A stretch of 64,000 nt of DNA from Octopus vulgaris (lineage: Eukaryota), in contig OX597816.1 of NCBI GenBank assembly GCA_951406725.2, positions 159,278,001-159,342,000 on the forward strand, written 5' to 3'. Each line of letters starts with the position of its first letter. Within the stretch, counting starts at the first letter, position 1. Positions 27,131 through 63,297 of the stretch are shown one piece after another. The position numbers were made by a program, and so were the translations under genes. Below the pieces are notes generated by a model, which searched no databases, was not told where the DNA came from, and worked only from the letters and a program-made list of their open reading frames with translations.

Positions 27131-27490
27131 AAGTAAAAAAAAAAAAAAAGAACAGAAGACGCAGCGAACAGGTTTTGCCAGTTAGAGCACTGAACACTCA
27201 GTTTTCACTTTCATTTTTCTTTTCCTTTCAGGACGGCGAAGGTGCGTACAAACAAAAGTTTTATTCATCGAACTCAGTACACTGAAAAAAAAAAAAGAAA
27301 CAAGCACACATTATTTTTTTTCTTTTCTGTACCTTTTGTTTTTCCTTTGTGCACACACACACTTATTCTTTACTACCCACGAGGTTCACACACACACACA
27401 CCAGTACACAAAACACGATTTTTGATTTGCTTTGTTAGTTCCACGTGTTCTCCACTTCTCGTTCATACCTTCTGCCCCTTTCTGACAAAC

Positions 27491-28239
27491 ATGGCTGCAT
27501 CAGGTTTGCCTTCATTCACAGGGGATGCGGGTCTGTGGCTTGCCCAGGTGGAGTCGCATTTTGCCGCACATGCCGTTCCTCCACAGCAGCAGTTGCATCT
27601 GCTATATTCGAGTTTGCCTTCCCGACTCGCCACATCGGTCAGGGATCTCATAATGAGTCCCCACCCTGACGCCACATATGCGTCAGTAAAGGCCGAAATC
27701 CTCCGCCGCAACATGCAGTCGGAGGAGAGTCAATTCAATGAGCTGATGGCCGACGAACAGTTGGGGGACAGGACTCCATCCCAGTTCCTGCGCACCTAAA
27801 GGAGCTAAGCGGCAACACAGCAGACGCGCCACTCTTACGGAAGATATTCTTCTCCAGGCTGCCTGCCCACGTGCAGACAATGTTGGCCACGGCACTGGAG
27901 TCTGTGTCAGTAGACCAGATTGCCACGATGGCCGACAAAATATTAGAATTTTCGGGACCATCTCCATCGCGGGGCCTGTACGCATGTACAGAGCCCCCTT
28001 GGACACCTTCTCCGACGAAAAATTCATTAGCCGAGAAGATCGATGCGCTTACGCAGCGAATCGATGATCTGTGCCGTGCGATCGGGCGCCAACCTCGCAG
28101 TCATAGTTGCAGTGGCTCTGTTTCCCGTAGTCGGAGTGACTCTATTTCTTGTTCCAGCTGGTGCTGGTACCATTCAAAGTATGCCGAAAAGGCAGAACGG
28201 TGTACCCAGCCGTGCACTTTCCAGCCCTCGGGAAACTAA
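27491..28239 (+). pseudogene. gag: gag with a 1-nt frameshift near 27793
   Basis: MAASGLPSF..D..LWLAQVESHF N-terminus, LGDRTPSQFLR motif and C-X2-H-X9-C-X3-C knuckle (CWYHSKYAEKAERCTQPC). The frame breaks at CGCACCTAAAG (expected R-H-L-K). Confidence 0.88.
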
Positions 28240-31200: not shown

Positions 31201-31441
31201 GAAGAAAGCATACTTTGAGACGTCTTCATCTTTTGATGACAACCTTGCCACACCCACCTATGCACCTTTAACAACACCTTCACCTGCAAAAACACCTTCA
31301 CCTGCACAAATACTTTTGCCTTCACCGGCTCCTACAACACCACCTTCGCCGTCAACGGGTGCCCCGAGCACACCGTATATTACAAGATCGGGCAGAACAG
31401 TGCATTGGCCCAAGAAACTTTCAAAGACAATTTATCTTTAA
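28236..31441 (+). pseudogene. pol: pol (protease, RT, RNase H, integrase) with a premature TGA at 28911 and a 1-nt frameshift near 31197
   Basis: PR VDTGS; RT DYRRLN, FGLRNA and YVDD; RNase H VDASD and TDHKPL; IN with [25 protein letters not shown] and KGPF; after the shift, a C-terminal TRSGRTVHWP ending at TAA 31439-31441. Confidence 0.92.
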
Positions 31442-39516: not shown

Positions 39517-39913
39517 GTCACATTAGCTGATCTCACTTTAACCTACCATTATTCAAACATGTTAAAATTGTTGCCCCTATTGGGAGTGAAAGCATTGTCA
39601 ATGTTGAAATTAAGTAAATGAGCTGCTATTGGTTAGTCCATTATAGAGAGAAAGGGGTAGGTGGTTTGTTAATTTACTAAGTAACATATCTTCTTTTGGT
39701 GCATGCAGTAGTGTGGATGATTGCTGCTGATGGTAGTGGGGAGGAGAGAGCTATGCACATCTTCTGGAGCAAAAGCAAGGCAGAGCCTTGTAGGGGTTTC
39801 CAGTGTAAGAGATTTCTGGTACAGGTGTGGGGGCAGGAATGAGTGGGCACAACATGGACAAGTAAAGAAGGCCAGCTTCATCTCAGGAAATAGCAGCCAA
39901 GATAGAAAGACAC

Positions 39914-42052: not shown

Positions 42053-43975
42053 TACACACATGTACTTATCTACGTATAAACACACACACACACATATACA
42101 TATTTAGTATCACAAGTAAATCAATACCATTGTAAAATCATTTTCATGATGAATACATAACGTGTAACAAATAATGAGAAATGGTAACTGTATGGAAATG
42201 ATAATCCTTTCATTCTTGATAAATATGTTATTCTATGAAGAATTGAAGAGAAAGGAAGAATACAAAGAAGCAGCAACAAAGGAGAGCTTTCAGATGTATG
42301 TATGTAGTGATAGAAGCAAGCAATTTCATGCTTCTTAGATGGAGAAGTGAACAATGATGTCAAACTGAAAAGAGCTGAATTATTAAATACACAGCACAAA
42401 TTGAGGTTTCCTGTCTCTATGACATTTCATAAGTCAATTCAAAAGTAGTCAACAAACATGAAATTATCAAAGATTTAATACTAACACCTAATACATCTAT
42501 TAATGTGATTGCCAAGATGTATAACCTAGCTTAGATACCTAGTAACATAAAACTGGTAATCACAAGCAAGAAAGAAAGAAATAAGGAGATATTATTTAAA
42601 TAGCTCATTATAGAAGCTTACAGATTCCAAAGTACAAGGTTTTCCATGTGCTTACTTGAATATCTTACAAAATTCAACATTTTATCAAACAGAAGTGCTT
42701 CACTTCAAACTGAGATAAAATTTCTGAACGAATTAAAAGCTCCAAGAGCCATGCTCAACCAAAACAAGTTGAACAATACATAGACAATAAATAATGGAAG
42801 TTTAATATAATTTCTATTTGTAAAGTAATTTTTACTTTTTTCAATGAAATACCAGCAAATGTGTGGAATGTTCAGACATTATGATCCAGCTGCCAATATG
42901 GTTCTAACAATAAGTTAATAACATATAAAGTTTAATGGATTTATGACAAATTCAAATTTACATATTTATAATAATTACAAAGATAAAGAATAGATGTAAT
43001 TATTTTAAATAAATTAAAGGCAATAAATAAGAGTCTGTATAGATATAGTTAGTGAAATTACAATAGAGACTTCAAGAAATTTAAGAGTTTCTCAAGTTCT
43101 ACAAGATGAAAACTAAACATAACTGAGTAAAGAGTTATCCCTATGAAAAAGTTTCAGATTAACTCTTAAAAATAAAAAAATTTAGGACTATTGTTGGATT
43201 AATGCCCATTTTTCCCTGCTGGTTGGTTCTGTAATAGACACATAACTGAAACCTCGTTTAACATTCTCAACAAAACAAGCATAAGTCTTACACAAACACA
43301 TGTAGTGTACATTTTGTCCAAATAAAAAGTAGACAGTTGCAAATTACTTGTATTCATTATCAGACAATTACAGTAAGCAATAAAATATTTCAGATAATGA
43401 ATTACACAGCTGAAAATTAAATACTAGACGTATATTTATATTTTCTTTTTGAGTCAGTATGTTTCTTTAGCTTACTGATGAAAACAATAACAAAAAAAAA
43501 ATAATAATAACAAAGACAAATGGAAAAAAAACTAAAAAGAAACAGTCATTTCATTTTGTTGTTAGTCCAACTATAACAGAATCATTGTTGTTGTTATAAA
43601 ATATTTTCAAATGTTCAATAAATAACAACTACGACAGATATTTTTTTTCGTTTCGTGATAATGATTTCCAATTTTTTTTTTTTTTTTTTAGTGTGTCTAA
43701 TTAATAGCATAAACCAAACATATTTACACCAGTAAATGCTATTGATATATATATATGGAACGCAAACCACTGTTTACAAAAAATAAACTCAATAATACAA
43801 CATGATTGAATTCAAGAAAGATGGAAGGGATCAACTGCATCATCAGCCTCAATTTCTTCTTTTGGAAAGGCCAGACTGGTGAAATTGTTTACAAATAATG
43901 AGCACTTTTGACCATGGATTTCATGTGCTTGTATAATTTTCAATGGAGACTGGTCATAACTGAATTAGGAAAATC

Positions 43976-45316
43976 TTAAATAAAATCATCCTCCTCTGTC
44001 ACCGTCGAAAGGAAAAGCTTATCAAAAACGTCTACATTTCGGCAATTATTTGCTGCCTTTTGTTCTAGTTGAGAAACAAATTTATTGTCTGGTGATGGCA
44101 TTTCTGAAGAGTTCACTATCATGGGTATAGCATATGATGATGATACTCGTGAATTTACAATATTGGATGGTGAATGTAATGAATAAGATGATGACGACGA
44201 TGGCGAAGAAGCTAGTGGCATGAGAACATCATCTGTAGTCTCATCACTTTGAGATTCAGAGTTATTGTCTTTGTTAGTGGTTATATTCTCAGTGGAAGAA
44301 CTATTAGCATTCAAGTCATTTTGGTCCACTGGGGACATTGTTACATCATCAGTTTTAGTTGGCGCAAGAGATAAATTAACAGGTGATAATGATTCTGAGG
44401 GGGAACACGCCATTTCTTGATTCTCTGTTAAACAATTTGTTGTAGTTGTAGTAGCAGAGGTGGTAGTGGCAGAACCGATGGTTGAAAAAGTGATGGCAGT
44501 AGTAGAGGTGGGAGTAGAAGGAACAGTGTCCATTAATTTCTCACTCTCACTATAATCATACGTAGCAGCAGTAGTTTCAGCATCAAGTGAGTTAGTGTCT
44601 TCAATTTCTCCTAACAACGTTTGCAACTGTTCATGTACCATGCTTGATTGCGTCAGATTTACCATTCTTCGGCTATCTGACTCCAGAATGCTGTCCAACT
44701 CTTTTGATGAAATATGGTAGCCCATCTTAATATTCTCATTGAAATCTGCCTTCATGAGCCAATGTGGCTGTTTTGAGGGCCGATTATCAGTCTCCCTCTT
44801 TGGTACCCGGAGTGATAATGGAACAAATAATTCAGAGAAACAATTATAATCAGCTTTCTCCATCAAAGTAGGCTTACTTTCTTCTCCGCTACCATTGTCA
44901 GATTCCTTAGAACCTGAATCTGATTCTTTTGATGCACCATCAGACTCTTTCAAAGAACTGCCAGCCTCCTCATTGCTTCGTTGGTCACTTGTAGTGAGAT
45001 AACTTGAATTTTTTGAAGAACTTTCAGAATTATCATCATCATTATCACTGGATTCAGTTTTTTCAGAGTTCTGCTGTTCCTTATCTTTACCACTCTCCGT
45101 TTTCGCCTCAGTCTTTTCATTTGGTACATTCTTATCTTTTACGTCTCTTGCTTCAAAGACAATTATTTCTGTTTCCTCTTCTGTACTAGCTGAGTTTGAA
45201 GATTGAGGAGAGTCAGCAACTGCTGACTCATCACATTCCTGATCTTTTTCTGACTTGTCGTCTTCGTTTAATTGGGTGGAATTTTCAAAGAATACCAAGA
45301 AATCTTCCTCTTCATT
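43976..45316 (-). CDS. per: period terminal coding exon: acidic Ser/Thr-rich tail with a second Period C-terminal motif
   Basis: TTTCAG acceptor in phase 0, in frame with the 440-aa ORF; stop TAA at 43976-43978; contains QPHWLM...MGY...ILESD...QSSMVHEQL. Confidence 0.87.
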   Translation of the reverse strand, partial: NEEEDFLVFFENSTQLNEDDKSEKDQECDESAVADSPQSSNSASTEEETEIIVFEARDVKDKNVPNEKTEAKTESGKDKEQQNSEKTESSDNDDDNSESSSKNSSYLTTSDQRSNEEAGSSLKESDGASKESDSGSKESDNGSGEESKPTLMEKADYNCFSELFVPLSLRVPKRETDNRPSKQPHWLMKADFNENIKMGYHISSKELDSILESDSRRMVNLTQSSMVHEQLQTLLGEIEDTNSLDAETTAATYDYSESEKLMDTVPSTPTSTTAITFSTIGSATTTSATTTTTNCLTENQEMACSPSESLSPVNLSLAPTKTDDVTMSPVDQNDLNANSSSTENITTNKDNNSESQSDETTDDVLMPLASSPSSSSSYSLHSPSNIVNSRVSSSYAIPMIVNSSEMPSPDNKFVSQLEQKAANNCRNVDVFDKLFLSTVTEEDDFI

Positions 45317-45720
45317 CTGAAAAAAAAATAAAAAAAAAATCGTTTTAGAAAATAATAATAATAATCAAAAGCAGGAAACAAGGAAACATTTTATTTGAAT
45401 TTTCTATTAGAATAAAGAAGTGAAAAGAGGTTATATAGATATATTTAAGTGAAACAAAAAAAACTTTAATTTATGTTCAACACGTTCTCCCTATTAAGTA
45501 AAATCTCAAAACAACTCCATGAGACCTGAGAAGTAACTAATGAATTGTTTTTGTCTTTCTTTTTTGTTAGAGAACACAAAATATTTGTCATTAACTTAAT
45601 AATGTAATTAAAGCTTCAATAGAAAGTTCTGTGCTAATTTCCAATAATATGTGGAATAAGTGAGATTGTTAAAATTGCAATTATTAATTAAATACAGTGG
45701 GGATAATGAAAGAAACTTAC

Positions 45721-45957
45721 AATAACTGGTATGTTACTATTGATAGTGACTTTGAGATCTTTCAGTTGTTCTTGTACAACTTTTGATTGGTACAAAGTGT
45801 TCAAGCGTTCATTGTCTTCTTTTAAAAGATGTTTCAAAGATTTATGTGGTACAGTGTACTTCATTCGAATATTTGTAGACCAGTTAGTATTCTGCAGCCA
45901 AAATGGGTCACGAGGTAAACGTTTATTTTTTCTTACACTTCCAGGATCACTAAAAAT
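45721..45957 (-). CDS. per: period exon with Period C-terminal motif copy 1 (RDPFWLQ...MKYTVPHKSLKHLLKEDNERL...VQEQL)
   Basis: DPxWL...MxYxxPxxxLxxxLKEDxxxL...Q...EQL is the Period_C (CRY-binding/CCID-region) signature. Confidence 0.93.
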
Positions 45958-46235
45958 CTGGAAAAAAAAAAAAGAAAAACAAAATAAGAAAAACAAAAAA
46001 AAGAAGTCAATATTTATCTTAACACTTAACATTATGAGCTTCAGGTAAACAAACAAAATAATTATAAAAAATATATAACAAAAACAAAAAAAGTTTTTTT
46101 TCAGAAAGTTAAAATGTTTGGCAATCACAAGCAGTCTGTATTTGAAAATTATCAAGATATCCTAAAATTATTTTTAGAATTAAATAGAATATCTTTTATT
46201 TAATGCAGGAAATATTACAAAAATAGTCAACGTAC

Positions 46236-46376
46236 ATCCGGGCAAGGCGAACTAGTGTTGCAGCTGCCAGTTTCAAGGAGGTACATGAGGGATGAACTAG
46301 TTTCCTCTTGAGATGTTGTACTGCAGGAGCTTTCAGAAATTTTGAGGTTATGTTTACTTAGAGCTCCTTGTAAATT
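46236..46376 (-). CDS. per: period exon (NLQGALSKHNLKISESSCSTTSQEETSSSLMYLLETGSCNTSSPCPD)
   Basis: 141 nt, phase 0/0, TTACTAG acceptor and GTACGT donor. TSSSLMYLLE resembles the SSxLLxLLL segment that precedes the PER C-terminal domain. Confidence 0.75.
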
Positions 46377-47067
46377 CTAGTAAGAAAAATAAAAACAAAA
46401 GGTTAAATACAGGTTGTTGCTATATTTCACAATTAATTAAAAAACACAGGTGAAAACTTTGCAACAACTTTTTCAACAATAGTACAATATCTATTGTTGT
46501 AAGTAAAATTGTCGAATAATTTATTCAACTTTAACTGATACAGACTGTTCAATACACTACTCTAACTCTTGAGTATACTCCCCAACACAACCTAATTTTC
46601 AGCAAGAGATTAGACTAGTTTACTTAATACCTTAATTCCCCAATGAACCTCTAACAATTCCCAATTGTTACAAAAATGGAATTCTTCTAAAGTAATAACA
46701 CAAACATAAAATTTACTTCACTCTATCCATTAATTTTATAATTTAATATTTGTTTTCCCATGCTAGCTTGCCTAAAATGAGAATAAATTTTGAAGCAGGA
46801 TTTTTATGGTCAGAAGCACTTATCATTAACCCTTGCCTATTCTCAAGTAAGAGATTTTTATTTCAATGCAATTCGAAAGTGCAGAGCTAGCAGACAATTT
46901 TGTAGACAAGAAATGTCAGTGAACTTCACTGTTTACAGCACAACCAGAATAATGAGATCATTGTTTGTAACTGAGTTACAACTCAAATATTCAAATAGAG
47001 GAGAGAATGATTTAACATTAACTAATAATATAAAATCAATTAAGAAAAAGAAAAAGGAAATATTTAC

Positions 47068-47261
47068 CCTTGATGACATCATTGACTCTTTTCTATTTGT
47101 ATTTGGACCACTACTAGATGTAATCTTGGTTTCTTGAGATTTACTTTTGGTCAGATTAGCAGTATTATGTGAATATGGAACAGGAGTATTGAATGCATGG
47201 AACAATCCAGGGACTGATTGATAGAATCTTCCAACAAGTTGTGTTGCTACAAATGGCATAC
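47068..47261 (-). CDS. per: period exon (GMPFVATQLVGRFYQSVPG...RKESMMSSR)
   Basis: Open frame with AG/GT boundaries; phase 1/0 fits both neighbours. Confidence 0.75.
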
Positions 47262-48714
47262 CTTAAATAAACATTTAAATAAGAATGTTATTTTCAAAAA
47301 TAGTATTAGTAAAAAGAATAAAACATTGCTGGGGAAGAAATTTAAATTCATATCATTGCTATTATGTTAAACTGATATATGTCCAAATGCGTTTTTTGCA
47401 ATATTTATTTTTGCTTGCAATAGCCGGTTCTTTTGGTCAAGCTATCATATCTCCAGCTGCTTTAGATGCCAAGATATCAAAAATTTTCAAAGTGTAGTAC
47501 AACAGTTTTGCTATGGAATAGTGTAACTATTTTTTTGTTTTCTGAAAAAGCAATGGTTTGGACTTATGACACTTTTGCATTATAGCAACAATATGAATAT
47601 TCATGTATGTATGATGTTACTGAGCATGAATGATGGTGTACACAAAAGTACTGAAAGAAAGATTGGCATTAAAGTATGTAGATGGTAAATAAAAGCATGT
47701 GACACATCTAGAGGATTCTAGTTACATAAAGAAGAGCTCAGAGTTTCAAATAGATGGAACCTTTGAAAAAGGGAGGCACAACCCAACCTGGGCAAATATA
47801 GAAAAATGTGTGTAAAATGAAGTTGGTGGTGGCAATGGAAAATTAAATGCAAGATATCTATACTGGAGATTCTCTTGACCATTCTGTTGAAATTAAGTTT
47901 CCATATAACTGCTCTCCCCATTTTTTCATAACACTTATCTCCTCACTGTCACTCTTATCATAATGCCTGTGCAACAAGGGATGGCATTGCATTGAATCCA
48001 TAGATATTCAATGCTCTACTTACCACCAACCTTTCTTTATCCCTAGCCATGACTCTCTTTCCACTCACTCCTACCACTCATTACTGATATCCATCACTTC
48101 CACTCTTACCATTAAGTATCTTTATTTCTATCCACCACCCTCCCCCTCCCCCAATTCTATCACCCTGTTTCCCCATCATAATGCACATACTGCTTCTATT
48201 CCATCACATTACCAACAATCCTTATGCAGCTGTCTCTCACTCTAGCTTTACTCTCTTCTCTTTCAGCCTTTTTCTTTGGTCCTCTTCTCTTTACTTGCTG
48301 GGACAAGGCAACAGAGGGAGTGGAAGGTTCTTTCAGTTTTGCCAGAAACAAAATAACTTCTCTCAAGGGCTGGTGCCACTATAAAATGCACCATGTAGCA
48401 CTCAATAAATAGTTTGGCAATAGAAAGGCATCTAGCCATAGAAACTGTGTCACAAATGGAATACAGGATTGGGCATGGTCCCTGACATGTCTAGGAGGAT
48501 AGTAACTGAATAAGAACTAACTTGGAACCAGAACCCATGCTAAATTAGAATTGCTCATGCTAATATGTAAAAGTGAACAGGAAACTGATGATAATTTTGT
48601 TTGGTGATATATTATAAAGAATTATATAAAGTATGATTATCAGAACATTCTAATTACAGTTAATAAGAAATATGTAAATGTTACAATTTTTTTTCATCTC
48701 TAAAGAATAAACTA

Positions 48715-48867
48715 CTGTATTTTAATGTGTATAAGGAACCCCATAAAATTTGGAAAAAGGTTTTTTGTAAGGGATTATAATACTATCCCTACATAAAAAA
48801 AAACTCCCATATATTTTTAACCTAATTTTTGGAAAAAAAAAGGTTCCTTATACTCGTTAAAATATGG
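48715..48867. mobile_element. TA-flanked Tc1/pogo-like MITE
   Basis: TA|CTGTATTTTAATGTGTATAAGGAACC ... GGTTCCTTATACTCGTTAAAATATGG|TA imperfect TIRs. Confidence 0.7.
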
Positions 48868-50015
48868 TAATAATCAACTAAAAACATCATTTTCAGTCAT
48901 ATTATACTAGAAGTAATATTTCAAAAGAACTAAATGAAAGCTGGAATCAAGACAAGGAACAAAAATGTAATCTATGAGATGCAATGGTTGCAAGATTAAA
49001 GAGTTGAGTTACCAGTCATAGGTTCAAATCTTACCATCACCAGTGTAATTGTTCCTGGGTTCATAACTTACTATTACTAGCACTAGTGTATTTGTTCCTG
49101 GGCTCTGCTTGGTAGAAAAGTGTCACTGCTACTTCACTGTTGAGAAGTTAACAATAAGAACAATTTCTAATGAAAATGATTCTTTTTCAAACAGTAACAA
49201 TGTTCCAAAACCCTTAATAGATCATTGGATCACTACTGGATGCTTCATCTTCACAGAATGTTATGGACAGGTCATCTCACTAAGCTACTGACTGAACACA
49301 GAAATTGTAGATATGATGCATGCAATATCTCAACTGGAGGACTAAACTGACATAACAGATTTAGCACAGTCTTTGATACTTGTTTTTAGAATACATATCT
49401 GAATGTATACATACAATCAATCTAACAATAAAATCATTCAAACTTTAATATCAGTTCAGAATTAAATTAAATAAAAAATAACAAGCCCATAACTTTTCTT
49501 GTTCATTATAGAAATAGACAGTAATTTTGATTTTAAAACAGACCTTATGAAAATTCTAGTTGTTATAAAATCCATATTTCATACCAGGAGCTCTTTTAGT
49601 AGCAGTTAGCAAAATAAAAAATATTCCTTTCTCAACCTCATAGCTGTGGGAGCTCTTTAGTTTTGTGAGTCACAGTATGAACTCATTTGTGCTGGTGCCA
49701 TGATAAAATGTACCCAATACACTCTGAAGAGTGGCTGGCAAACCAAGCAATACGAAGTAAGGTTGAAAGGATTCTTAAGTTTTGTTGCTGCCAAAACTGA
49801 CTGAGTGAGATGTGGGCTTTCAACCTGTCTAGGAGATTGGTAACTCCAAATAAAAACTAACTTGCAATATAAAGAAACATCCAATTCATGCCAGCATAGA
49901 AAAATGGATGTAAGATTGTGATAATGATGTTTTTAAATATGATATATTCTTTCAATAAAAAGTATAGAAACAGCCCCAAAACATTATTAAAGTTGACATA
50001 AAATACTATCTTTAC

Positions 50016-50718
50016 CTGTTTGTGTGTAACAAGGCCAGTATGTAGTTGGCATAGAAGCAGTTGTAGTATTTTGAGTGTAGTTCATTGAACTAACATTATG
50101 AGTGGAATTATTAGATGTCATATGCATTGCAGGATCATACTGCAACACTGGAATAGCCTGTTGGAAGTTTTGCTGGAAGGCATTTTGTACATTTGGAAAC
50201 TGGACTTGGGTGGGATATTTTGAGTAAGGCATATTTACAGGATATGTGGGCCGGTAGAACTGAGGATGAAGAGGTGTTTTGTTGAAAACTTGAGATGAAC
50301 TTAGTTGCTGATTTGTCATTTGAGCTTGTTGCATATTTGTAGGGTATATTTGAGATTGGTCTAATCTTGGTACTTTAGAAGGTGGATAATCTTCCTGATC
50401 AGAGCTGGATAGTTTGTGCCGATTAGGGTGTTGGGTAGTATTTCTGTTACTGCTATTATCTGAACTTCGACCTCGATCCAACTCAAAAAGACTAGAATCA
50501 CTGGTAGCTTGCTGCACATATAAGCGCTCCTGTAACTGCGTATGCATTCGCAAAACTTCCGGCGTTAAACTGACTGGTTGATATAAACTCTGTCCATCAA
50601 AAGAAACTGAAGGTGGTGCAGTGGATATAGAAAGTTCTTTATGTATGTTAAAATCTTCTAAATAATCATCTGCAGGTGGACTGGTTGCATCTCGGGGTTC
50701 TTGGTCAGAAACAAGTAC
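50016..50718 (-). CDS. per: period large exon (VLVSDQEP...PVSLTPEVLRMHTQLQERLY...Q/P-rich region)
   Basis: LTPEVLxxHTQxQE matches the conserved PER LT(K/E)xxLxxH(T/N)xxxE motif; 703-nt open frame; phase 0/1. Confidence 0.9.
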
Positions 50719-51166
50719 CTAAAAGTTGAAAAAAAAAAAAAAAAAAAATGATTATTTTAAAATAAAACTGCTTTGTAGCTTGATATTTAAATTACTGTAA
50801 TATTTCAAATAATCCTAATGACTGCATACCTCCATATACAGACATACACATACAAAAAAGTGGATACATGCATATATGTATCCTCCACATTGTCATCAAA
50901 TTAACATCCACTTTTCCATGCTTGAACGTAAAAAGCACCCACTATACTCTCGGAGTGGTTGGCGTTAGGAAGGGCATCCAGCCGTAGAAACTCTGCCAGA
51001 TCAAGATTAGAGCCTGATGCAGTCATCTGGTTCGCCAGCACTCAGTCAAAATCGTCCAACCCATGCTAGCATGGAAAGCGGACGTTAAACGATGATGATA
51101 TATATATATATATATTTGTAGAAAGAAGAAAACTAAAAACAAAATTACAAGGAAAAAGCAACTTAC

Positions 51167-51252
51167 TTTTGTACTGCTTCCAAAGCTTGGTGGATTCAAA
51201 ATAGGTATATCTACGGGAACAAAATCTGTATCGGCACAGAAATCACTGCAAT
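51167..51252 (-). CDS. per: period exon (CSDFCADTDFVPVDIPILNPPSFGSSTK)
   Basis: TTTCAG acceptor and GTAAGT donor; phase 1/0 fits both neighbours. Confidence 0.8.
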
Positions 51253-52519
51253 CTGAAATAATGCAAAATACAAAGAATAAAGAAAATGTAAAATACTCCA
51301 GTAAATGCTTTATATACCAACAAATGTTAGTCACAAACTATTCTCAAAATAAAACAGAAAAAGCAGCCAAACTTCTAATTTATTAAGTTAGAGAATAAAC
51401 AGAATGTCTTGCACTCAACTTATAGGCACTCAAAGAGGATACCAACTGCAATCTGAGAGGGACAGTGAAAGCCACAGGCTCAGATCCTTTCCTCCAGATC
51501 AAATCTGCTTCAAGTCTACAAGGCTCAAGAGACTGGAACCTATCCAGATTTTCAAGATGCTTAAGCTGAGAATACAATATGCTCCCATCCCATGAACAGA
51601 ACACCAGACCATTACAAACTTAACTTGCAATGACCACTGGTACTTGTTTTCAGATGAATGTACAGGAAGGAGATGAAATGGTGTACCTTGTTCAAGAACA
51701 CAATGTACTACCCAATCTGAAAATTGAGCTCACAAACTAACAATTGCAAGCCCACCACCTTAACCACTAGACCAAACCATAATAGAAAAAAAGGGGGAAA
51801 AGAAACATCACAAGCCTAATACTTGGGTAAAATGGCAAGCTGACAGATTCATTAGCATGCAGGACGTTGTTTAGTGGCATCTTTTTTTTGACTCTTTATG
51901 TTCTGAGTTCAAATCCTGCTGAGGTCAACTTTGGAGTTGATGAAACAAAATACCAGTTAAGTACTGGAATTAATGTAATCAATTTGTCCCTTCTCTTTGA
52001 AAAATTGCTGGCCTGCAACAGACTGGAATCCTCTTCAGAGAAATGTTGTGATGTCAGTCACTTATAAGCCTTGGATATGGGTTATTATCTTATTTTTCTT
52101 GAGAACAGTTCTAGGTCTCAAGAAAAATAATAAGATAATAAAAAAAATCTTGGATGCCTTTAGTTGAGTTCAATGTATCTCAAGCATGATCTCTCAACCC
52201 ACATCAAGCTGGGATTTAGCTGCATCTATCTCACTAGTTTAATAGGGTTCGCAAAAGCCATGGACACATTGTCCCATCACCCTTGGCTAACTAAAAAAAA
52301 CAAAATTTTCAAAATACTGATGAAAAGGGATCAAATTTGGTTGGCACCAGTGTCGAGTTTAGCTGTAATTTCTTTACCTATCATTAATGCTGATAATGTT
52401 GTACTTTAATGAAATATTCACAGAGTGGCTTATTTAAGACAAAATTCTAAGTTGAAGTAAAAAACAAAAAGCCAAATAAATACATATTTTTTTTGTATTA
52501 AATTCAAGACAAAACTTAC

Positions 52520-52596
52520 TCTCTGACTTTACTTGTTTTGAATCTTCTTTATCTGAATTATCAGAATGATATGTTTTGGGCTGGCTCAGCAGAAAT
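52520..52596 (-). CDS. per: period exon (FLLSQPKTYHSDNSDKEDSKQVKSE)
   Basis: Completes the RFFxSxP motif as RFLLSQP; phase 2/1. Confidence 0.88.
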
Positions 52597-53149
52597 CTGG
52601 AAAATAGAATTGATAAATAGTAATAAAAATAATTACAAGTTTTAAGATATTTCACGTTCAAAAACTCAAGGAATATATCAAAAAAAATTGTCACGTTATG
52701 TCACCATGAATGATCTGCTATTGTATAGTTTATATGAATGTATGCTATGATGTTTCACAGTTGTACCTGTCTGGCAAATCACTCGATCTGAGACTGTGTT
52801 TTGAAACTGAAGAAACTGCCTCACAGAAGAGCAATTCTGAAAAGACAAACTATTAAATTCATTCATTTTTCAAAGTGTTAAAATTTTCATCACACTAACT
52901 GCAACCTTGTTGGTTGCTGCCACAGTTCTGCCATGCTAAAACAAAGAATTGCAGTGGAACTGTCAATGACCAGGTCACAGTGATGTAATGAAAATCTTAA
53001 CACTTCAATAAATAAAAAACAAATTTAAAAGGTTCTTTCATGTATGTATGTGTGTTGACGGCGAAAAGTGCTCTAATTACTATATTATGATGATAATATT
53101 GTCATCAACAAACCATTGACATAAATCATTTAAAGAATTATAGGCACAG

Positions 53150-53300
53150 AAATGGCTGAATGACAAGTTTGCCTCCCAATCACATGGTTCTTGGTTCAAT
53201 TCCACTGCGTGGCACCTTGGACAAGTGTTTTTCAACACTATCCTTGGGCCAACCAAAGCCCTACGAGTAGATTTGGTAGATGGAAACTAAAAGAACCTGT
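53150..53300 (+). repeat. Second tRNA-headed SINE family (representative copy)
   Basis: GGTTCAATTCCACTGCGTGGCACCTTGGACAAGTGT...GATTTGGTAGATGGAAACT. Related copies at ~2995, 5540, 10210, 15595, 16835, 18940, 19305, 21430 and 59480. Confidence 0.75.
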
Positions 53301-54047
53301 ATGTGTGTGTGTGTGTGTGCATGTATATCTGTGTTTGTGCTCCACCACCACTTGACAACTGGTTTTGGTATGTTCATGTCCCTGTAACTTAGTGGCTTGA
53401 TAAGAGAGACTGATCAGTACCAGGTACACACACATACACACCATCACTGCTTTAATGCCCACTTTTCCATGCATGCTTGCATTGGGTGAATGAATTTTCC
53501 ATGACTGGATGCCCTTCCTTTTGCCAACTCTCATCTGTTTCCAAGCAAGGAAATATTTCCCCATGACCAGACATGTTTTCACAGAATATTGGAAATAAAT
53601 GACACTGCCTGTATGACAGCAACACACATTTAAAACTACTATGTGATCTAAAGACAAGGAGGTACATACAAACACATGCATATTACACACACACACATAC
53701 GCACAACAGGCTACTTTCAGTTTGTCTACCAAACCCACATACAAGGCTTTGGTTGGCTCAGGATGGACAATGGTGGGAGACACTTGGCAAAGGAAGAACA
53801 GTAAATTTGAAAAAAATCCGATAATTTGTAGAAAAGACATTACAAAATGTGACTATTTACAAATTTAATGGATCAACAGCAACGAAAAACAAAAACAAAC
53901 TAATGTAAAATCTAGAGTTGCAACTGCAAACAATAAATGCAAATGGTTTTAAATATTTGTCAATATGGCTGAACGCATTATAATAGTCAGCTAATAAGTT
54001 TGATTAAAATATGGATGTTAGTAAAGAGCAGAAAGAGAAACACTTAC

Positions 54048-54160
54048 CGCCTAATGTTGTAGGAATAGTTCAGCTGTTCATATGTAACGGATGTGTCTGA
54101 GTCAAATTGTAATGGAGGGGAACTGGAGTGTGATACAGCTGGACTAACATTGCCATCATT
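54048..54160 (-). CDS. per: period exon, CK1/DBT-binding region (SPAVSHSSSPP...VTYEQLNYSYNIRR)
   Basis: TYEQLNY..NI.R corresponds to the conserved PER SYNQLNYxENLxRFF motif. Confidence 0.92.
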
Positions 54161-55313
54161 CTAATAATAAAATAATAATTTTGACATTGAAATATCTATC
54201 AAAAGACCAACAAATTTGCAAGAAAGACTGTTTATATTCATTTGATTAAGCAAATACTGAGATATTTAAGTCAACTTATATGTTAGTCTAGACAGGACAA
54301 CAGCATTTTAATTAAATGACAGATTATTGGTAATTAACAGAGAATATTAAAATATAATTTCATTTTATTTATTAAAAAAAACGTAATCCTTAATAATGTT
54401 AATATGAAATCAAGATAGGGCCTAACTATATATAACTTGTATTTTGAATACAAGTCATCATCATCATTTAATGTTTATCTTCCCTGCTGGCATGAGTCGA
54501 GCAGTTTGACAGGATCAAACAAGTTGGAGGATTGCATCAAGTTCCAATATCTCTTTTGGCATAGCTTCTACATATGGATACCCTTCCTAATGCCAATTCC
54601 CTTACAATGTACTGGGTGCTTTTTCTCTGACACCAGCACTAGTGAGGCTGCTAAGTAACTAGCAAGACAAAGAAAAGGTCCCTAGACTGATTGGGGTTAT
54701 AGTATAGAGGAAGGTGGCTTTACACCAGGTGTTGAGAGGTTAAACTATGATGGTAGGACAGGCACAGGTGTCTTGCTATAGAGGAGTTACATGGCTATCC
54801 AACATTATATAGGAGTGGGTGAAAATAGTAAGAAAAGGGGACAATTGTGTTGGTGACAAGTGTCAGAGTATACCCTCAAGATATAAGAAGGTGAGTATAA
54901 GAGAGAATATGGACTGAGACGTCTGGTGGTTTGTTGTGCTTGAGAAGACACGTCAAGCTAAGTAAAATTGTGGCTGTTCATGCACACAGATATGTCTTCT
55001 ATATCTCTCTCTCAGTTGAGAGATCCTAGTCTTGCAGGCTCATGGATGCTGGGGTCATGTTAAAGTATCCAGCACACACACTCTGTAAAGTAGTTGGCAT
55101 TAGGAAGGGCAGCCAACCCTTGAAACTATGCCAAAGCAGACAAATGGAGCCTGGTGCAGCTCTCCAACTGCCAGTTCCAGTCAAACCATCCAACTAATGC
55201 TAGCACGGAAAACAGACGTAAAATGAAGATGATGATGGGCAAAGAATCAGGAAGAATGTTAAACTGAATTCAAAAAAAAAAAAGGTAAATCAGCAGTAAC
55301 TGATTAAACTTAC

Positions 55314-55393
55314 CGGACAATATATTACATCATCAACAAAACTACCCGCTGTCATAAAACCTTCTTTTGATTGTACTTCTGATCTGCAGGTTT
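55314..55393 (-). CDS. per: Probable period exon (TCRSEVQSKEGFMTAGSFVDDVIYCP)
   Basis: TTTTAG acceptor and GTAAGT donor; only one open frame, phase 1/0; little recognisable homology. Confidence 0.65.
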
Positions 55394-56501
55394 CTAAAAA
55401 TTAGAAAAAAATTGAATAAAAATATAGGTTGATCGAAACTTTTGATAATTTTTAAACAAAATAACTGGTTAGCAGTAATTTCAATAAGAAAATGGGATGA
55501 CAAGAGATAACCACAAGAGTAGCAGAATTATAATACAAAAAGAAGTTAACAGATGTTTACTTACCAAAAACAGCTAAAAGATTATTAGTCTCTAAAATTT
55601 TACAAACAAAACAGTAAAGAAGATCAGTTAAAAAAGAATCAAATTATTTTATATGTTCCATGATTAAAACGAAGTATTTAATCACCATTCACCAATAAAT
55701 AAAAACCTAAAAATCTGCTACTCACTCCACAATCATTGCCATCACTTGTGGTTTCTATTTTACCTTTCTTCAAATAATAGAATGCAAAGAAGGTTTTTCT
55801 ATAACAATTTACACACATTTGTTTAAATTATTGAGTCAAATGATAGATACCATGATTACATCCAATAATAATTTTAACTCTAATTTTGACAAAAGGCCAG
55901 CAATTAGGGACAAGTTGATTACATTGACCCCCCCCCCCACTGCTGACTGGTAATTATTTTATTGATACTAAAAGAATGAAAGGCAGAATTTGAACTCATG
56001 TAAATGGCCATGAGAAATGCTGCTAAGCAGTTTATCCAAATAGCTAATAATTCTGCAAGTTTGCTGCCTTATAGTCAATAATGATAATGTTGGAGAGAAA
56101 GCAATAATTCAAGCTGATAACAGAACAGTCAAGAATATAAGACGCTAGTTAATATTAGATAGTTCATCCGACATGATGGTGTCACACCAAATGGTTGACA
56201 ATCATTATCACTGCTACAATAATATGTTTGACAATTTGGCAGATATCAACATGCATCAACAAATAATTTGCTCGCAAAGATATTAACAAAAGCTAAAAAC
56301 AAGTTAGACTAATTTGTCCAGAGTAGCTGCACTAATGAATAGAGTGTGTTAAAAACATACATTCACCATCAAGTTGTTCTCCTGCTAATGAAAGACAACA
56401 GTGATTAACATATTCACATTTGAAGCTACCAGAACAAATTAAGAAGTCATTGTTGATATGCTTAAGTTAAGTTGTAGAGAGAAAAAAAAATCTTTACTAA
56501 C

Positions 56502-56734
56502 TTGTTGTAGATATATTCACCACAAGAGAAGGTGGAGATTTTGCAACAGCAGGTTTTTGTTTGCTAAGTGGTTTATTTCTAGCTGGAACAAGGAAAGACT
56601 TCTCAGTTGTCTGTTGTAATAGAATTTCTTGAATCATCCGTTGCAATTTCTGTCCTTGAATTTGACTTTCTTCAGACAATTTTGAGTAGGAGTTGTTTGT
56701 ATCCTCATCAAAAACATTAGGATTTTCAGGGATT
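56502..56734 (-). CDS. per: period exon after PAC (IPENPNVFDE...KLQRMIQEILLQ...); donor position uncertain
   Basis: PxNxxVF followed by the alpha-F/NES-like helix LQxxIxxILLQ. The GTTAGT donor at 56501 was chosen because it gives phase 1, matching the next exon; a GTGAAT donor at 56520 is an alternative. Confidence 0.8.
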
Positions 56735-57210
56735 CTAGTAGAAAAGAAAGTAAAACAGATATAATTTTTTAAATTTTAAACATACAATGAATAACAACTT
56801 TGCTGCTGCAAGACAAAGCAAACCACTCTAGCTATGATGGTTTTAGGTGGATTTTTAGGAACTATGGTTAAAAATATTAATTCGTAAAATGTAATAAAAA
56901 TAATTAACTTAAATTATAAAGAAAATTAATGTTATTCTATAGTAAAGAAGTAGAATAAAAATGGTTAAAAAAATATGAATCCCTCACACACAAAAAAAAA
57001 GAAAAAGCTTAAATATAAATTTCTTTGGCTTTAATAATTACTTGAGTGAAATCAGACTAACAGCTCTCCAGAAGTTGTTACTAACAGGATAACTCTATTT
57101 CAAGTTTTATCTACATCATTTAAATTAAAAGTTAAAAACAGCTATACAATAAAATCCTTAATCTCCAAGAAATTAGGACAAAACTTAATAAAAGATTATA
57201 AAATATTTAC

Positions 57211-57364
57211 CTGACTACAGTGTGCTGGCCATTTACATCTTCAAGTCTTTTGGACCATTGATTGAGAGTAGCTGACCATTCAGTTTCAACATAAACCCAG
57301 CTTTGGTTTCGTGTCCGTAAACGGTAGGGCTCACTCTTAAAACGGAACCCTTGGGTTGACACAA
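57211..57364 (-). CDS. per: period exon, PAC (SEPYRLRTRNQSWVYVETEWSATLNQWSKRLEDVNGQHTVV)
   Basis: Matches the PER PAC pattern SxPYRF...ETEWxSFVNPWSRKLEFVxGxHxV. Confidence 0.93.
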
Positions 57365-58822
57365 CTGAAACAAAAAAGATTACTCATGTAGCAGAATACT
57401 ATGTTGCCCAGAAAACAAATGAGTTGGTGGACAATTTTGTGAAAAAGAATTAATGAATCTGTAACATGCTTATATTCTTTGTTTAATGTTGAGCCTCATT
57501 GAGGAGTTCCTTTCAAGCATTGGGCCTCACAGAGGCAAACTGGCCGAGTTCCTTTTGAGTGTTGGGTCTCACAGAGGCAATGTTCGAGACCTTTGGCATT
57601 ATGTCATGGCAGGTATTGATGTCACACAAATGGCACCCATGCTAGTGGCACATAAAAGCACCCATTACACTATCAGAGTGGTTGGCATTAGGAAGGGTAT
57701 CGAGCCATAGAAAACCATGCCAAATCAGACTGGAGTTAGGTGCAGCCTTCCAGCTTACCAGTCTAGGTCAAACCGTCCAACCTGTGCCAGCATGGACAAC
57801 GGACGTTAAATGATGATGATGATTCAAAAATGTCTTATCTCTGGCAGAACTTAGACAAACAATTCCTAGTGAACAGCTTCATGAGCAATGCTTTCAGTTA
57901 TTTTTTACTTTGAGCACTGACAAAGATTGTTTTTGCTTTCAACATGTTGACATTCAACACATAAGCTAAGGCATGCACACACACACACAATAGACAGGTA
58001 TCCTCTCACATTTTAAGAATGTTGCTGTCAAGTGGAGCTGTAGCATGCAAGTGATTGGTGTTAGGAAGGACATCCAGTTACAGAAACCACACCAAAGCAG
58101 GTACTGGAATCTTGTGCAGTCCTCTGGCTTGGCAATTCTTGTTGAACCATCCAACCCTTGCCAGCATGGAAAACCGGCGTTAAATGATGAATATTTTTCT
58201 CTGGATTTTCCAATCATATAACATGGCAATCAATGACATTGGCTTTGAGTTACAAGATTTCAAAATTATAGCATAATTTTCAGGAATGTAAAGCTTCTAT
58301 AACACAACAAATGCTTGTATCAGAAATATTCATATATGATTACTTAGTGTGTACAAAAAAAATTCCAACAAAATATACCCTTTGTTGGTGGTCTTTATTT
58401 GCATACAATTAGAAATTTGCAGAGTCACATATTCTAAGTAATTTGGCAGCAAATTCAAACAGAATTTTTTGAGGTAGATTTTCTATGGCTGGATGCTCTT
58501 CCTGTTGCCAAACCTAACTCACTTTCAAGCAAGGTGATATTTTCTCATAGCTAGACATGCGTTTTATAGAAAGCTGGGAGCAAACCTTAATTGTATGATG
58601 ATGATACTCAGTTACGACCATCATATAATGTCTAGGTGTGGATGCATACAAACACACATGTATACATGAAGCTGTTCACTAGAATAAAAACTGAGAGTTG
58701 GTAACATATTTGCCCCAAAATTGAAATATTAGAGAAATACATAATAATAGAATAGCATGAAAAAGTCAAGTTAACAAAAGAGAAATGAAGGAAGTTGAGC
58801 ACACAGATGACTGGAAACTGAC

Positions 58823-58929
58823 CTTTTTGATAAACAGTCTGTAAGTACGTCAAATCATCAGGATGATAGAGTTCAAATATAGACATGCCTATTAGATCCT
58901 GAGGCAGGAAACCCAGTAAAGTAATTGCA
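58823..58929 (-). CDS. per: period exon, PAS-B (AITLLGFLPQDLIGMSIFELYHPDDLTYLQTVYQK)
   Basis: Diagnostic LG(Y/F)LPQDLIG...YHPxDL motif of PER PAS-B. Confidence 0.95.
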
Positions 58930-59772
58930 CTGAAATAAACAAGAAAATAATTAAAGATTCTGCTTTGCTTATAATTTATGATAACTAAGTTATTTTACTA
59001 AATTCTTTGTTATATTTAAAGTAATTGAAAGAAACACAGAGCATCTCAATATAAATATAGTAATGAAAGGGTTAAATAGTGGTAAGCTACTAATACTAAT
59101 ATCTAAACTGAGATCAATATCAAATTTGCATTTATTCCATCCATTTTTACTGCCCACTATTCATGGGAGAGTTGTTTGAGTAAAGTCCCCAGGCAACCCT
59201 TCTATAGGGTTCTATCAGAAGCAATTGTCATTAGACTTTACAGTTGGATTACCAAGTGTCACCAATCCTTAACTTCTTTTGGAAGAAAAGGATTTCTTTA
59301 TTCCACAGGAAACTGGAAGTGCAGGAAGTGTCAAGATCTATTGACAGGAAATGTCAACAAACACTACCCATGGTGGCAAAGCCACAAATTGCAGTGTCAC
59401 TGTTTGTAGCTGTAGCTCAGCATAGATTGTAAACATTCGGACATACAGACAGACACATGCATACACAGACACCCTAGGTACTTTTCAATTTCCATCAACC
59501 AAATTCCCTCACCAGGTAATAGTCAGCCTGGAGCTTTAGTAGAAGATATTTGCCAAAGGTGCCACTTAGTGGGACTGAACTCAAATCCATGTAGTTAAAA
59601 AACAATCTCCTTAACCACACAGTGATGTCCATGCTACCTTCTATAAATTTTATGTCTTGTCAAAAGAAATTTTCGTTTGCCATGCTGTTTACTAGAAAGA
59701 TCTTACAACACTACTGGTGGTGATAATGAGGGTGATAAAAATTGTGACAGATTAGAGGCTGTTTTTACTCAC

Positions 59773-59848
59773 CTGTTACTAATTAAGCTAAGGTTACAAT
59801 AGAGATTATGAGTGGTTGAAAAAGTGAAGTCTTTGGGCATTGAACATC
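59773..59848 (-). CDS. per: period exon, start of PAS-B (CSMPKDFTFSTTHNLYCNLSLISN)
   Basis: FSTTHxxxC corresponds to the PER FTTRHTxxC motif; TCCAG acceptor and GTGAGT donor; phase 1/2. Confidence 0.88.
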
Positions 59849-60298
59849 CTGGATAAAAAAAAAAAAAACAATGGTAAAGAAATTAATTCCACTGGATACT
59901 TAAATACAATTAACATTTTAAATATTCATTTTTTAAAAAAATATCAGTCACAATTAGAAAATGCAAAGAAAATGTTATTTTCAGTTTTTAAATCATACGT
60001 TCTAAGTTTCCCTGTCAGTATTAGATTTTTAAAAAAATAACTGATTATTTCTAAATTTATCATGAGTGCCATGTGGAATCCCATTTAAAGTTAAGAAATG
60101 TGAATGTTTAAGATGATCTTTGAAGTTATTATATTGTTATATATAAATTAATTTTAAAATCATTATAGTCAACAGCTTTAAGGATAAAAGAAATCAATCT
60201 TTCAGATTATTAAGGTTTCTCTATAAATACAAATATATATCTTATAATGTGATATGTAACAAAAGAGAAGAGTGATATTAAACAAGGGAAATAATTAC

Positions 60299-60486
60299 CA
60301 ATATAAGCAGACTGGAGTGGTACACATCTTAAGATAAAATGCTTTGTTTTCTTAGAGCTGCCTAAAATGTTCCTATCCTTTTCTGATGAAGGTGTATCTA
60401 AGATCTGTGTGGTAACATTAGCTTGGAATGCACAAAACTTATCTTGTCGCTTCAGGCCATAGCCATCGTTCAAATTTTTGTAATAT
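60299..60486 (-). CDS. per: period exon, end of PAS-A (YYKNLNDGYGLKRQDKFCAFQ...ILRCVPLQSAYI)
   Basis: Matches the RYxGLxxGFGV...PF and PIxSAY segments of invertebrate PER; phase 2/1. Confidence 0.88.
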
Positions 60487-62215
60487 CTAAAACAGAAACA
60501 AAATCAACAATGTCATAAATATAATTCCAAGTTTTTGAGTTAGATAATATTTCAAATATTAACATAAATACAGTTGCATAGTTAAGGTATTGGAAGGAAG
60601 GCTACTCCACTAAATGCATTTCATTTTTGAGCTTATCTCTAGATTCTGGCTTCAACTTCCACAGACTGATTTTAATTTTCATCCCTATGACCAGTAATAT
60701 CATGATCATTTTACATCCTCTTTCCATGCTGGTATGGGTTGGACAGGCTATGACAGTCTAAAACATTCCTTATTGGGAGCCACTGCTTCTCATTAATTGA
60801 TTCTTTTACATGTCATTCAGTTTGGTTGCCATGGTCGGACATACTTCCAACTGCCAATCACTTTACAGAGTGCACTGGGTCCATTTACTTATGATACCGA
60901 CACAAGACAGCATTAAAAGGACCTCACATTTTCCTCTGCTCATTTACCTATTATTTAACACTGTGTGCTGGATGCACTTTTATGGTATCAATCCTAGCGA
61001 GGTAGTCTTGCTCATCATTCACCTATAGCAGGTGCATGGCAGGTTCCATTGTAGGAACAACATAGGGTGTATCTTGAGCACAGTAAGAGTGAAGAATATG
61101 TTGACCAAAGAGAGAATAGGAGATGGTGTAATGAGAGCAGAAAGGGTATTGTGTGTGTGTGTGTATGGAAGGTGATAGGAGTGGAAAAGCAGAGGGTGCT
61201 CCAATCTAGGGTGTGTGTATTTGCTCAGGTGACTTAAGAGGGAGAGCAAGATATCAGAAAGCCAGAATAAGTGGGAGCATGGAAAGAGCAGGTGCTTGAT
61301 GAGGAAGGCAGTGATTGGCAATAGCTAGGTGAACAAAGTTAAGAGTGAACAACACAATAAAGGCAAGAGTAAGTGTTAAGTGACAACAGAGCTATCCCAT
61401 GGGAGAGAGAATGCTGGCTGGTAGTCCCGCAAGGTAGAGTTAGAGTGTATGGCACTGTGGTTAATCAAGTGACTGCACTCCCCCCATATTATGTGAAACA
61501 GAGCCTAGTATTAAGAAAACAACATGGGTTGGTCAGTTGACACGGTCCAAATCAGAGAGTTACTGCTCCTAGATGGGTCAGAGGAATGCCTCTTGCCTGA
61601 ATGGAAAATATGAAACTAAGAGGTCAGTAACTCCAAATAAGAACTGATTTGGATTGTGATGACCTATCTAACTCATATCGGTATGGAAAGCAGATATAAA
61701 ATGGCAATGATAACAATGGTGGCGGTGGTGGTGAAAGCGGTGGTGGTGAAAGCGGTGGTGGCAGTGATGAGAATATTCTTTCATTAGTTCTGAAGTAAAA
61801 GAAGTTTACATTAAGAAACCACAAACAAAGTTTTGGTCAACATAATGATAATTATAAATAATAATATATATATATATACACATATATATACTTTAGCTAG
61901 TAATGAACGAATACTTTAAAAATTCTTAGAGAATCTGTAAATGTAAAATTTAGTATACCTGGTACAATTATTTATGGATGCTAAGTTCCAACAACAACAA
62001 CAACAATAATCTATTTTTCTAGAAATTTTAATCAGTAAATAAAAATGATTATTATTTAATTTAGAATTTGTTAATCCATTGACCTAATTTCTCAAAACAA
62101 CCCATCGGCCCAGTCTGGAAGATCAGTTTAACTAATGAAGAACTGCTATCAATTCTTATTTAAAGAAATAAAATAATATAGGGTTATATATATATTTTGA
62201 AGTGAAAGTAATTAC

Positions 62216-62252
62216 CTGAGCCGGAAGTATATGGTATTTTCTTTTTGTTTGG
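62216..62252 (-). CDS. per: period small exon (AKQKENTIYFRLR)
   Basis: 37 nt, phase 1/2, fitting both neighbours. IYFRLR corresponds to the PER FFCRIR strand. Confidence 0.8.
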
Positions 62253-62668
62253 CTATAAAAAGAAATGAACAGTTAGTATAATGTGAAGTCATCAGGAATA
62301 TTTTTTAGTGAAGGAAAACACTTAAAACTCATAAAATTAATTAGTATATTATGAAAAATTATTTTTAAACAGATTTTATGGCTAACTGAATATAACATAT
62401 TAAAAGATGAGCACATTTTCTATAAAAGAAAGAGCTTTTAACGATGTGACTAAAGCAATATTTAATACACATTTCATACTATTAAAAAATCAGATAATGA
62501 ATTGTTCACATCTTCATGTGTGTTTACATATGTATTTTATTAATGGAATTGGAAACAAAATAATGTTTTCAAAAACACTCATTTTATAAACTAAATGAAA
62601 TGGATATGTGAAAAGAAAATTCTGAAAAGGTGTATATTACAGACAAATAAAAAAAAAAAAAATCTCAC

Positions 62669-62789
62669 CTGCTCCACCAGAATCTGCATATCGCTTGAAT
62701 GTATTTTCATTTTTTGATAACATATTATTCACTGTTATAATATCTTTACGAGATGTGAAGCTAGTTAAAAGATGTCCACGCCAGCTATC
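62669..62789 (-). CDS. per: period exon, PAS-A (DSWRGHLLTSFTSRKDIITVNNMLSK...)
   Basis: Corresponds to the PER DMWLGRSFIDFVHxKD segment; TTTCAG acceptor and GTGAG donor; phase 0/1. Confidence 0.85.
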
Positions 62790-63213
62790 CTGAAACAGAA
62801 AAAGAAAAACAAAGTTAATTTCCTATGTAACTGATATGTTTACAAGAATTGATCTATATCAGTGGTTCTCAACCATTTTTCACCAGTGGATCCCTTTTTT
62901 TGCTATTTTATTCTGGTAGACCCCCATAGTCATTCAATGTTTAGAAACTAATTCAATAAATACTTCTTTCAAAATTTCTATTTTGTTTATTCACTCAGTC
63001 ACTTGTATAGGTTGAAGTATGTAAAATGTTTCTTGCAAAACATTACATGGACCCTACTAAGGATCCCCAATTAACTATTCTGCAAGTGTGAAGCCCCGAA
63101 AATCTTAGGATGGATTAATAGGAAATGGTAGGTCAGAAGAAGGGTGTCTATGGTTGGATGCCATCTCATGAAAAAAAAAAAAACACATTAAAAAAATATT
63201 CAATGAAACTTAC

Positions 63214-63297
63214 TTTTGGATATCCAAGAAATTTCAGTAGAGAAGCATGTACTGAATCCACTCTGCAATCCAAAGTCACAGCTAGAACAAAAGATCC
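63214..63297 (-). CDS. per: period exon, start of PAS-A (GSFVLAVTLDCRVDSVHASLLKFLGYPK); upstream exons lie outside the window
   Basis: Resembles the PER PAS-A segment ending LGYP; CTCTCTTAG acceptor and GTAAG donor; 84 nt. Confidence 0.85.

Follow-up and report, generated by a model that had tools for sequence, protein, structure and literature searches.

The closest described system is the cryptochrome (CRY)-binding domain (CBD) of mammalian PER1 and PER2, represented by the structures 4u8h, 4ct0 and 6of7 and by the Pfam family PF12114 (Period_C). These proteins carry one such domain, whereas octopus PER carries two, and they possess a CxxC zinc clasp that the octopus copies lack. The PER2 domain contacts CRY through W1139, D1167, residues 1171–1174 and the zinc clasp, whose loss weakens the binding of mouse PER2 to CRY, and PER2 shields CRY from FBXL3-type turnover (Nangle 2014, PMC4157330). 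Arthropod PERs (bee, bug, beetle, moth, mosquito and Limulus, together with the krill PER-CRY2 model of PMC5735174) share the same core with its Q..v..QL helix. The arthropod domains compared are acidic, like octopus copy 2, and the insect and Limulus domains among them are also without the CxxC clasp. The domain is single in all 131 arthropod-like sequences, and the motif that follows it gave no profile match to the mollusc motifs, neither to the F motif nor to the one behind copy 1. The preliminary description of this locus had also credited Drosophila PER with a single homologous block; this is at odds with the text of bioRxiv 10.1101/2025.01.17.633578, where D. melanogaster is stated to have no PeriodC domain.

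The published mollusc PERs (Bathymodiolus, PMC7351958; oyster, PMC5224872; nudibranchs, PMC6180908) are encoded by the same orthologous gene, which is single copy per genome where this is stated (PMC6180908). Mussel PER was described as having 'one Period_C domain', with a length varying between bivalves (PMC7351958), and the domain descriptions in the other accounts give PAS/PAC domains only, with no mention of a second copy (PMC6180908, PMC5224872). No description of a two-copy PER was found in open-licence PMC and bioRxiv text, a scope outside which subscription journals, supplementary alignments and bioRxiv supplements fall. The two-CBD PER is a real and old architecture of a core clock protein that has apparently gone unreported. 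Because neither the gene family nor the domain family is new, and two stretches are already reported by Pfam on these proteins, we regard it as an unnoticed architecture and not as a new kind of system.

The octopus period gene and its two CBD copies

The 64,000-nt stretch of Octopus vulgaris DNA that was analysed (the window) contains the following features.

43976..63297 (-), coding exons of the period gene, residues 137–1459 of the 1459-residue protein P0003 (tblastn of P0003 on the window)
57211..59855 (-), exons of the PAS-B region, about residues 278–392
46236..46376 (-), 141-base exon with the Ser-rich/SSLxYLL block that opens Pfam Period_C upstream of copy 1 (Period_C match from residue 887; alignment; exon ends)
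45721..45957 (-), copy-1 exon, 237 bases, 79 codons, phase 0 at both ends (Pfam 43.5 bits)
45754..45906 (-), core of CBD copy 1, residues 952–1002, with a basic patch and net charge +4
45317..45720 (-), 404-base GT-AG intron between the copy-1 exon and the terminal exon (joint 45316/45721 in runs X1, X7 and X8)
43976..45316 (-), terminal coding exon of 446 codons plus the stop, which encodes in turn the acidic spacer, the Ser-rich M motif, F motif 1, copy 2, the Ser/Thr tail and F motif 2
44936..45019 (-), M motif, 28 residues, Ser-rich, residues 1113–1140; in 61/61 two-copy proteins and 0/168 other single-copy proteins
44816..44854 (-), F motif 1 (FxxLF), a short helix immediately ahead of copy 2 (AlphaFold helix 158–163)
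44615..44767 (-), core of CBD copy 2, residues 1197–1247, net charge -2; W1199 corresponds to mouse PER2 W1139 and D1227 to D1167
44012..44029 (-), F motif 2, close to the C-terminus (profile match to F motif 1, E 2.5e-5, probability 75)

The spliced product, P0003 (1459 residues; the source names Octopus vulgaris), belongs to a cluster that takes in period proteins of O. sinensis and O. bimaculoides and whose members are named period circadian protein. Its PAS domains find their best PDB matches in PER PAS chains of Drosophila, mouse and other species (E 1e-34 to 2e-18), and Pfam returns PAS_11/PAS_3 and Period_C. On a tree of the N-terminal 800 residues it stands among the mollusc PERs, as an orthologue of mollusc, arthropod and chordate PER. 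The first 136 residues found no match in the window by tblastn.

The terminal exon, which contains copy 2, is spliced to per as had been supposed: the 45721/45316 junction is bridged by contigs in three of four runs (X1, X7 and X8, from three studies), and a single X8 contig spans from exon 50013–50715 through both copies. We treat these three runs as probable RNA; no run is recorded as RNA, and the status is a guess backed by the intron joints. The contigs of the fourth run, X15, whose kind is unrecorded, do not join the junction. The copy-1 exon and its predecessor each begin and end in phase 0, and their lengths are multiples of three, which would allow in-frame skipping of copy 1; no such skipping joint is among the 15 joints listed. 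Nor is any A-to-I-type change inside either copy among the differences listed from these contigs, which drop rare variants. All four runs show a 27-base in-frame insertion relative to the window at 44453, in the Thr/Ser-rich tail after copy 2, which is a length variant of a low-complexity repeat. The probable RNA contigs are unbroken across 42500–43975 (-) and continue past 42500, and the 3′ UTR is therefore longer than 1.4 kb. The nearest AATAAA found lies at 41932.

The window also holds long open reading frames in several frames at 27194–31441 (+), which read by eye like gag, protease, reverse transcriptase, RNase H and integrase and which we take to be a Ty3/gypsy-type retrotransposon. Broken reading frames at 36670–39522 (-) and 13308–13871 (+) are presumably LINE endonuclease and reverse transcriptase remnants, again by eye.

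The two copies align on the minus strand without gaps over 51 residues, and the 20/51 identities counted by hand in the preliminary description were recovered; nucleotide identity is 51%. BLASTP of the copy-1 exon against the terminal exon gives 21/58 identities (E 2e-11). The spacer, put earlier at about 200 acidic, Ser-rich residues, measures 194 residues, with 18% Ser, 15% Glu and 10% Asp. Pfam returns two Period_C stretches on the spliced protein, as expected (44.3 bits against a cut-off of 25). The copy-1 exon alone scores 43.5 bits (E 4e-11), and the terminal exon alone scores 21.1 bits (E 3e-4), under the 25-bit cut-off. Since copy 2 misses this cut-off by itself, its homology rests instead on the profile comparison with copy 1, which gives a probability of 99.5 and E 1e-22 for profiles of 29 species-level rows. 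Compared with PDB sequences, copy 1 has as its top three the PER2 CBD chains 4u8h_B, 4ct0_B and 6of7_B (E 6e-6 to 6e-5); copy 2 has the same top three, more weakly (E 0.005–0.008).

The M motif between the copies is 75–93% identical between octopus and five other molluscs, above both CBD copies and the PAS-B region. Outside lophotrochozoan-type PER it was found in none of the 168 other single-copy proteins. It is likely, from its sequence, a phosphorylation cluster; by consensus rules we take its Ser/Thr spacing to resemble CK1, CK2 and GSK3 sites. A Ser-rich stretch of amphioxus resembles the end of M by eye, with no profile score. Profile comparison gave no support to the notion that M is a duplicate of the block preceding copy 1 (probability 2.9, E 0.016). 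The F motif near the C-terminus is significant in 10/21 tails compared with 0/29 control linkers, eight tails being too short, and from its sequence F motif 2 is likely a duplicate of F motif 1. The M and FxxLF motifs of two-copy PERs were not detected in the vertebrate sequences compared.

An acidic-aromatic motif (DEExD-aromatic-L-x-F) follows copy 1 and is conserved in most molluscs. In P0003 it occupies residues 1010–1025, at about 45700–45760 and 45290–45316 (-), and straddles the octopus splice junction. No counterpart was found after copy 2.

Spread and origin of the second copy

A first local profile, applied to 158 PER-like proteins, found two copies in 22, one in 75 and none in 61. 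With a refined profile, 61 of 305 PER-like proteins have two copies, 176 have one and 68 have none; this survey took proteins of at least 150 residues and counts isoforms and fragments. The survey of lophotrochozoan PERs that had been proposed thus places the doubling well beyond cephalopods. Two copies are found in the chiton Liolophura; in the gastropods Haliotis, Patella, Nucella, Babylonia, Tritonia, Aplysia, Lymnaea, Biomphalaria, Onchidium, Elysia and Plakobranchus; in the bivalves Pinctada, Mizuhopecten, Saccostrea, Tegillarca, Mactra, Mya, Mercenaria, Ruditapes, Dreissena, Potamilus and Sinanodonta; and in the cephalopods Octopus and cuttlefish. Outside molluscs, they occur in the brachiopod Lingula and the nemertean Lineus.

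Eight of the 176 single-copy proteins carry the M motif: three Tubulanus isoforms, three early-ending gene models and two fragments. Two mollusc-like partials were dropped from the remaining single-copy set, leaving 166 arthropod- or chordate-like sequences (131 and 35, respectively), none of which has a second copy; this set was sorted by name or motif and contains many near-duplicate hymenopteran isoforms. The gene models ending before copy 2 are Sepia pharaonis P0021 and P0022 and Mytilus coruscus P0042. The Tubulanus PER (P0059; three isoforms) has copy 2 only, copy 1 having been lost. A further protein, P0082, contains the M motif with no scoring CBD, only a trace before M, and lies on a long branch; it is a candidate for either a loss of CRY binding or a pre-duplication state. 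Because Tubulanus has copy 2 alone and P0082 lacks any scoring copy, a PER can evidently do without two sites.

On the tree of the N-terminal 800 residues, Tubulanus and P0082 join the two-copy proteins in a single branch (SH-aLRT 88, not starred). A tree of the copies themselves, based on only 62 columns, unites 20 of 21 second copies and the lone Tubulanus copy in a starred branch (98/97), split from all first copies and single domains; the Patella copy 2 falls outside it. Copy 1 groups with the single domains on this tree and occupies the ancestral position, after the SSLxYLL block. AU tests, with low power, failed to reject either copy-2 monophyly (p 0.27) or a duplication confined to cephalopods (p 0.13), so that the copy tree alone is weak. 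The shared layout is a stronger argument for a single origin than the tree. The same 28-residue Ser-rich M motif separates the copies in every one of the 61 two-copy proteins, and an FxxLF-type motif lies just before copy 2 in 28/29 rows.

Judged from these sequences, the tail was likely duplicated in tandem once, before molluscs, brachiopods and nemerteans split. We infer that the unit copied began with the CBD and extended through the FxxLF motif, giving the order CBD1-spacer-F1-CBD2-spacer-F2. No named annelid PER was recovered among the protein search matches or the 28 clusters looked up, and the supplement of PMC7351958 contains a Platynereis PER fragment of 317 residues, which lacks the tail. 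The age of the duplication is therefore stated as at least that of the common ancestor of molluscs, brachiopods and nemerteans, as far as the sampled sequences indicate. Animals of these three phyla diverged from that ancestor in the Cambrian or earlier. The proposal of an old duplication kept by selection has fared well: the copies are spliced into one mRNA and are present in molluscs, a brachiopod and a nemertean, and we consider an old duplication under selection almost certain.

CRY-contact residues and predicted structures

Between octopus and two cuttlefish-like proteins, copy 1 is 77% and copy 2 is 56% identical, compared with 21–35% for the flanks; copy 2 is thus kept in related cephalopods, as had been anticipated. 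Against chiton, Aplysia and Tegillarca, copy 2 (31–48%) is on a par with copy 1 (35–38%). The equivalents of PER2 W1139, the Trp inserted next to the secondary pocket of CRY, and of L1164 are present in all 29 copy-2 rows, with W and L invariant over three phyla, and that of D1167 is present in 28/29. Copy 1 has the W in 29/29 rows and the D in 27/29. Octopus copy 2 contains both the equivalent (D1227) of the Asp that forms a salt bridge to the C-terminal helix of CRY and hydrophobic residues at the positions equivalent to 1171–1174. The CxxC half of the zinc finger is absent after both octopus copies and occurs after only 1/29 first and 2/29 second copies. The octopus domains are therefore not assigned as CBDs of the vertebrate (PER1/PER2) type.

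AlphaFold predicts three helices in copy 2 (pLDDT 87–94 over residues 201–240 of the terminal exon), the rest of the exon being of low confidence. A Foldseek search with this model had no match at E 0.001; 6of7_B came up with an E of 4.6, which is no evidence. For the complex with CRY, we used a stand-in repressor-type cryptochrome, L017 (from a metagenome contig, arthropod-like; best PDB match mouse CRY1, E 2e-257). Structure prediction of each copy with cephalopod CRY1, CRY2 and TIM had been suggested in the preliminary description; with this stand-in the model of copy 2 scores 0.85, and the best of three controls reaches 0.01. The runs agree in at least 44% of contacts, with a partner pLDDT of at least 51. 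The mark used for such scores is reached by 51/78 solved and 2/108 mismatched microbial pairs and, in eukaryotes, by 71/105 solved and 2/126 unrelated pairs.

In the model, octopus D1227 contacts R490 of L017, which by alignment corresponds to R483 of mouse CRY1 and R501 of CRY2; the contact is the equivalent of the mouse D1167-R501 bridge. Only the C-terminal half of copy 2 (1215–1251) is placed confidently in the complex, and W1199, the W1139 equivalent, is not. The prediction was made without alignments of our own. The model docks copy 2 on repressor-type CRY in the manner of PER2, though it may reflect memory of 4u8h, 4ct0 and 6of7. Because similar complexes are solved, we read the pass as likeness and not as binding. 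The putative binding of copy 2 to repressor-type CRY is supported by both sequence and model.

Possible roles of the two copies

We propose, with modest preference, that both copies clamp the C-terminal helix of repressor-type CRY, giving a two-site PER with unequal sites; the contact residues suggest this for both copies and the modelled complex for copy 2. Of the parts of this proposal, binding of repressor CRY by copy 2 is probable, and the chances that both sites are used are about even. Copy 2 would clamp the C-terminal helix as mouse PER2 does, and both copies would shield the bound CRY from FBXL3-type turnover. One PER could then hold up to two CRYs, or one more tightly. The two sites may differ in affinity or timing because copy 1 gained a basic patch and copy 2 stayed acidic like the arthropod domain, and the Ser-rich M motif between them may act as a kinase-controlled switch. 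Counting against a two-site mechanism are the single-copy Tubulanus protein and krill, where a PER:CRY2 dimer was not detected by co-IP though the domain is present (PMC5735174).

The divergence of the copies bears directly on this proposal. Of the two copies, copy 1 has the more positive charge in 25 of 29 proteins, with three ties. It carries a Lys/Arg patch ahead of the main helix, and over nine positions it has on average 3.8 Lys/Arg and 0.1 Asp/Glu, the copy-2 averages being 1.6 and 1.9. The copy-2 profile gives single domains the higher score in 120/131 arthropod-like sequences, many of them near-duplicate hymenopteran isoforms, and in 25/35 chordate-like sequences. The arthropod-like domains are acidic like copy 2, with a median charge of -4. 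By sequence, the arthropod single domain thus resembles copy 2 more closely, and copy 1 carries the basic patch. Since copy 1 holds the ancestral position yet the outgroups score higher on the copy-2 profile, the main rival is a division of labour, in which repressor-CRY binding passed to copy 2 and the basic patch turned copy 1 to a different function, such as nuclear import, binding of an acidic partner (for example a phosphorylated M motif) or binding of a different cryptochrome. The retention of copy 2 alone in Tubulanus is consistent with this reading, as is the existence of a second partner, WDR5, of the PER2 CBD (PMC13649712). Both the reading and the jobs it assigns to copy 1 are nevertheless rather unlikely in our estimate, as copy 1 retains the same contact residues, sits after the SSLxYLL block and trees with single domains; in octopus it is also the better match to mouse PER2 and the better conserved copy among cephalopods.

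The version raised as an example in the preliminary description assigns one copy to the light-sensing cryptochrome and the other to the repressor, bridging light input and repression. D. melanogaster is not known to have any CRY other than the light-sensing one. Its reported lack of a PeriodC domain (bioRxiv 10.1101/2025.01.17.633578) counts against such a bridge, as does the retention, in both copies, of contacts defined on repressor CRY. The presence of both CRY types in oyster (PMC5224872) and the systematic divergence of the copies are in its favor, and Bullo et al. (PMC12049834) question TIM-PER binding in molluscs and annelids, a doubt under which other routes of light input would be conceivable. 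We consider this version improbable. Finally, copy 2 could be a passive leftover or an annotation artefact, either the last exon of a different gene or a duplicate in decay. The sub-threshold Pfam score of copy 2 alone and the Sepia and Mytilus models that stop before it would fit. However, those models end mid-tail and related proteins have both copies, the junction is seen in three probable RNA runs from three studies, and copy 2, with its W and L invariant over three phyla, is conserved well above its flanks. This explanation is largely refuted and, in our judgment, highly unlikely.

Returning to the two-site proposal, its significance lies in the role of PER-CRY assembly, which determines how strong animal clocks are and what period they keep; a partial weakening of the PER-CRY interface is enough to shift period and robustness in mice (PMC11645128). 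Molluscs have both CRY types as well as TIM, whose binding to PER there has been questioned (PMC12049834). A second predicted CRY site, conserved over three phyla, alters the expected PER:CRY stoichiometry, and the clocks of the animals with two copies likely assemble their repressor complex differently from textbook models. A more speculative arrangement, to which we give a small chance, is a two-socket PER scaffold in which the repressor cryptochrome sits on acidic copy 2, another cryptochrome or a different partner sits on basic copy 1, and M serves as a phospho-switch choosing the socket. If true, this would represent a third clock architecture beside those of fly and mouse, and would offer a molecular handle on daily and tidal/lunar timing in marine molluscs.
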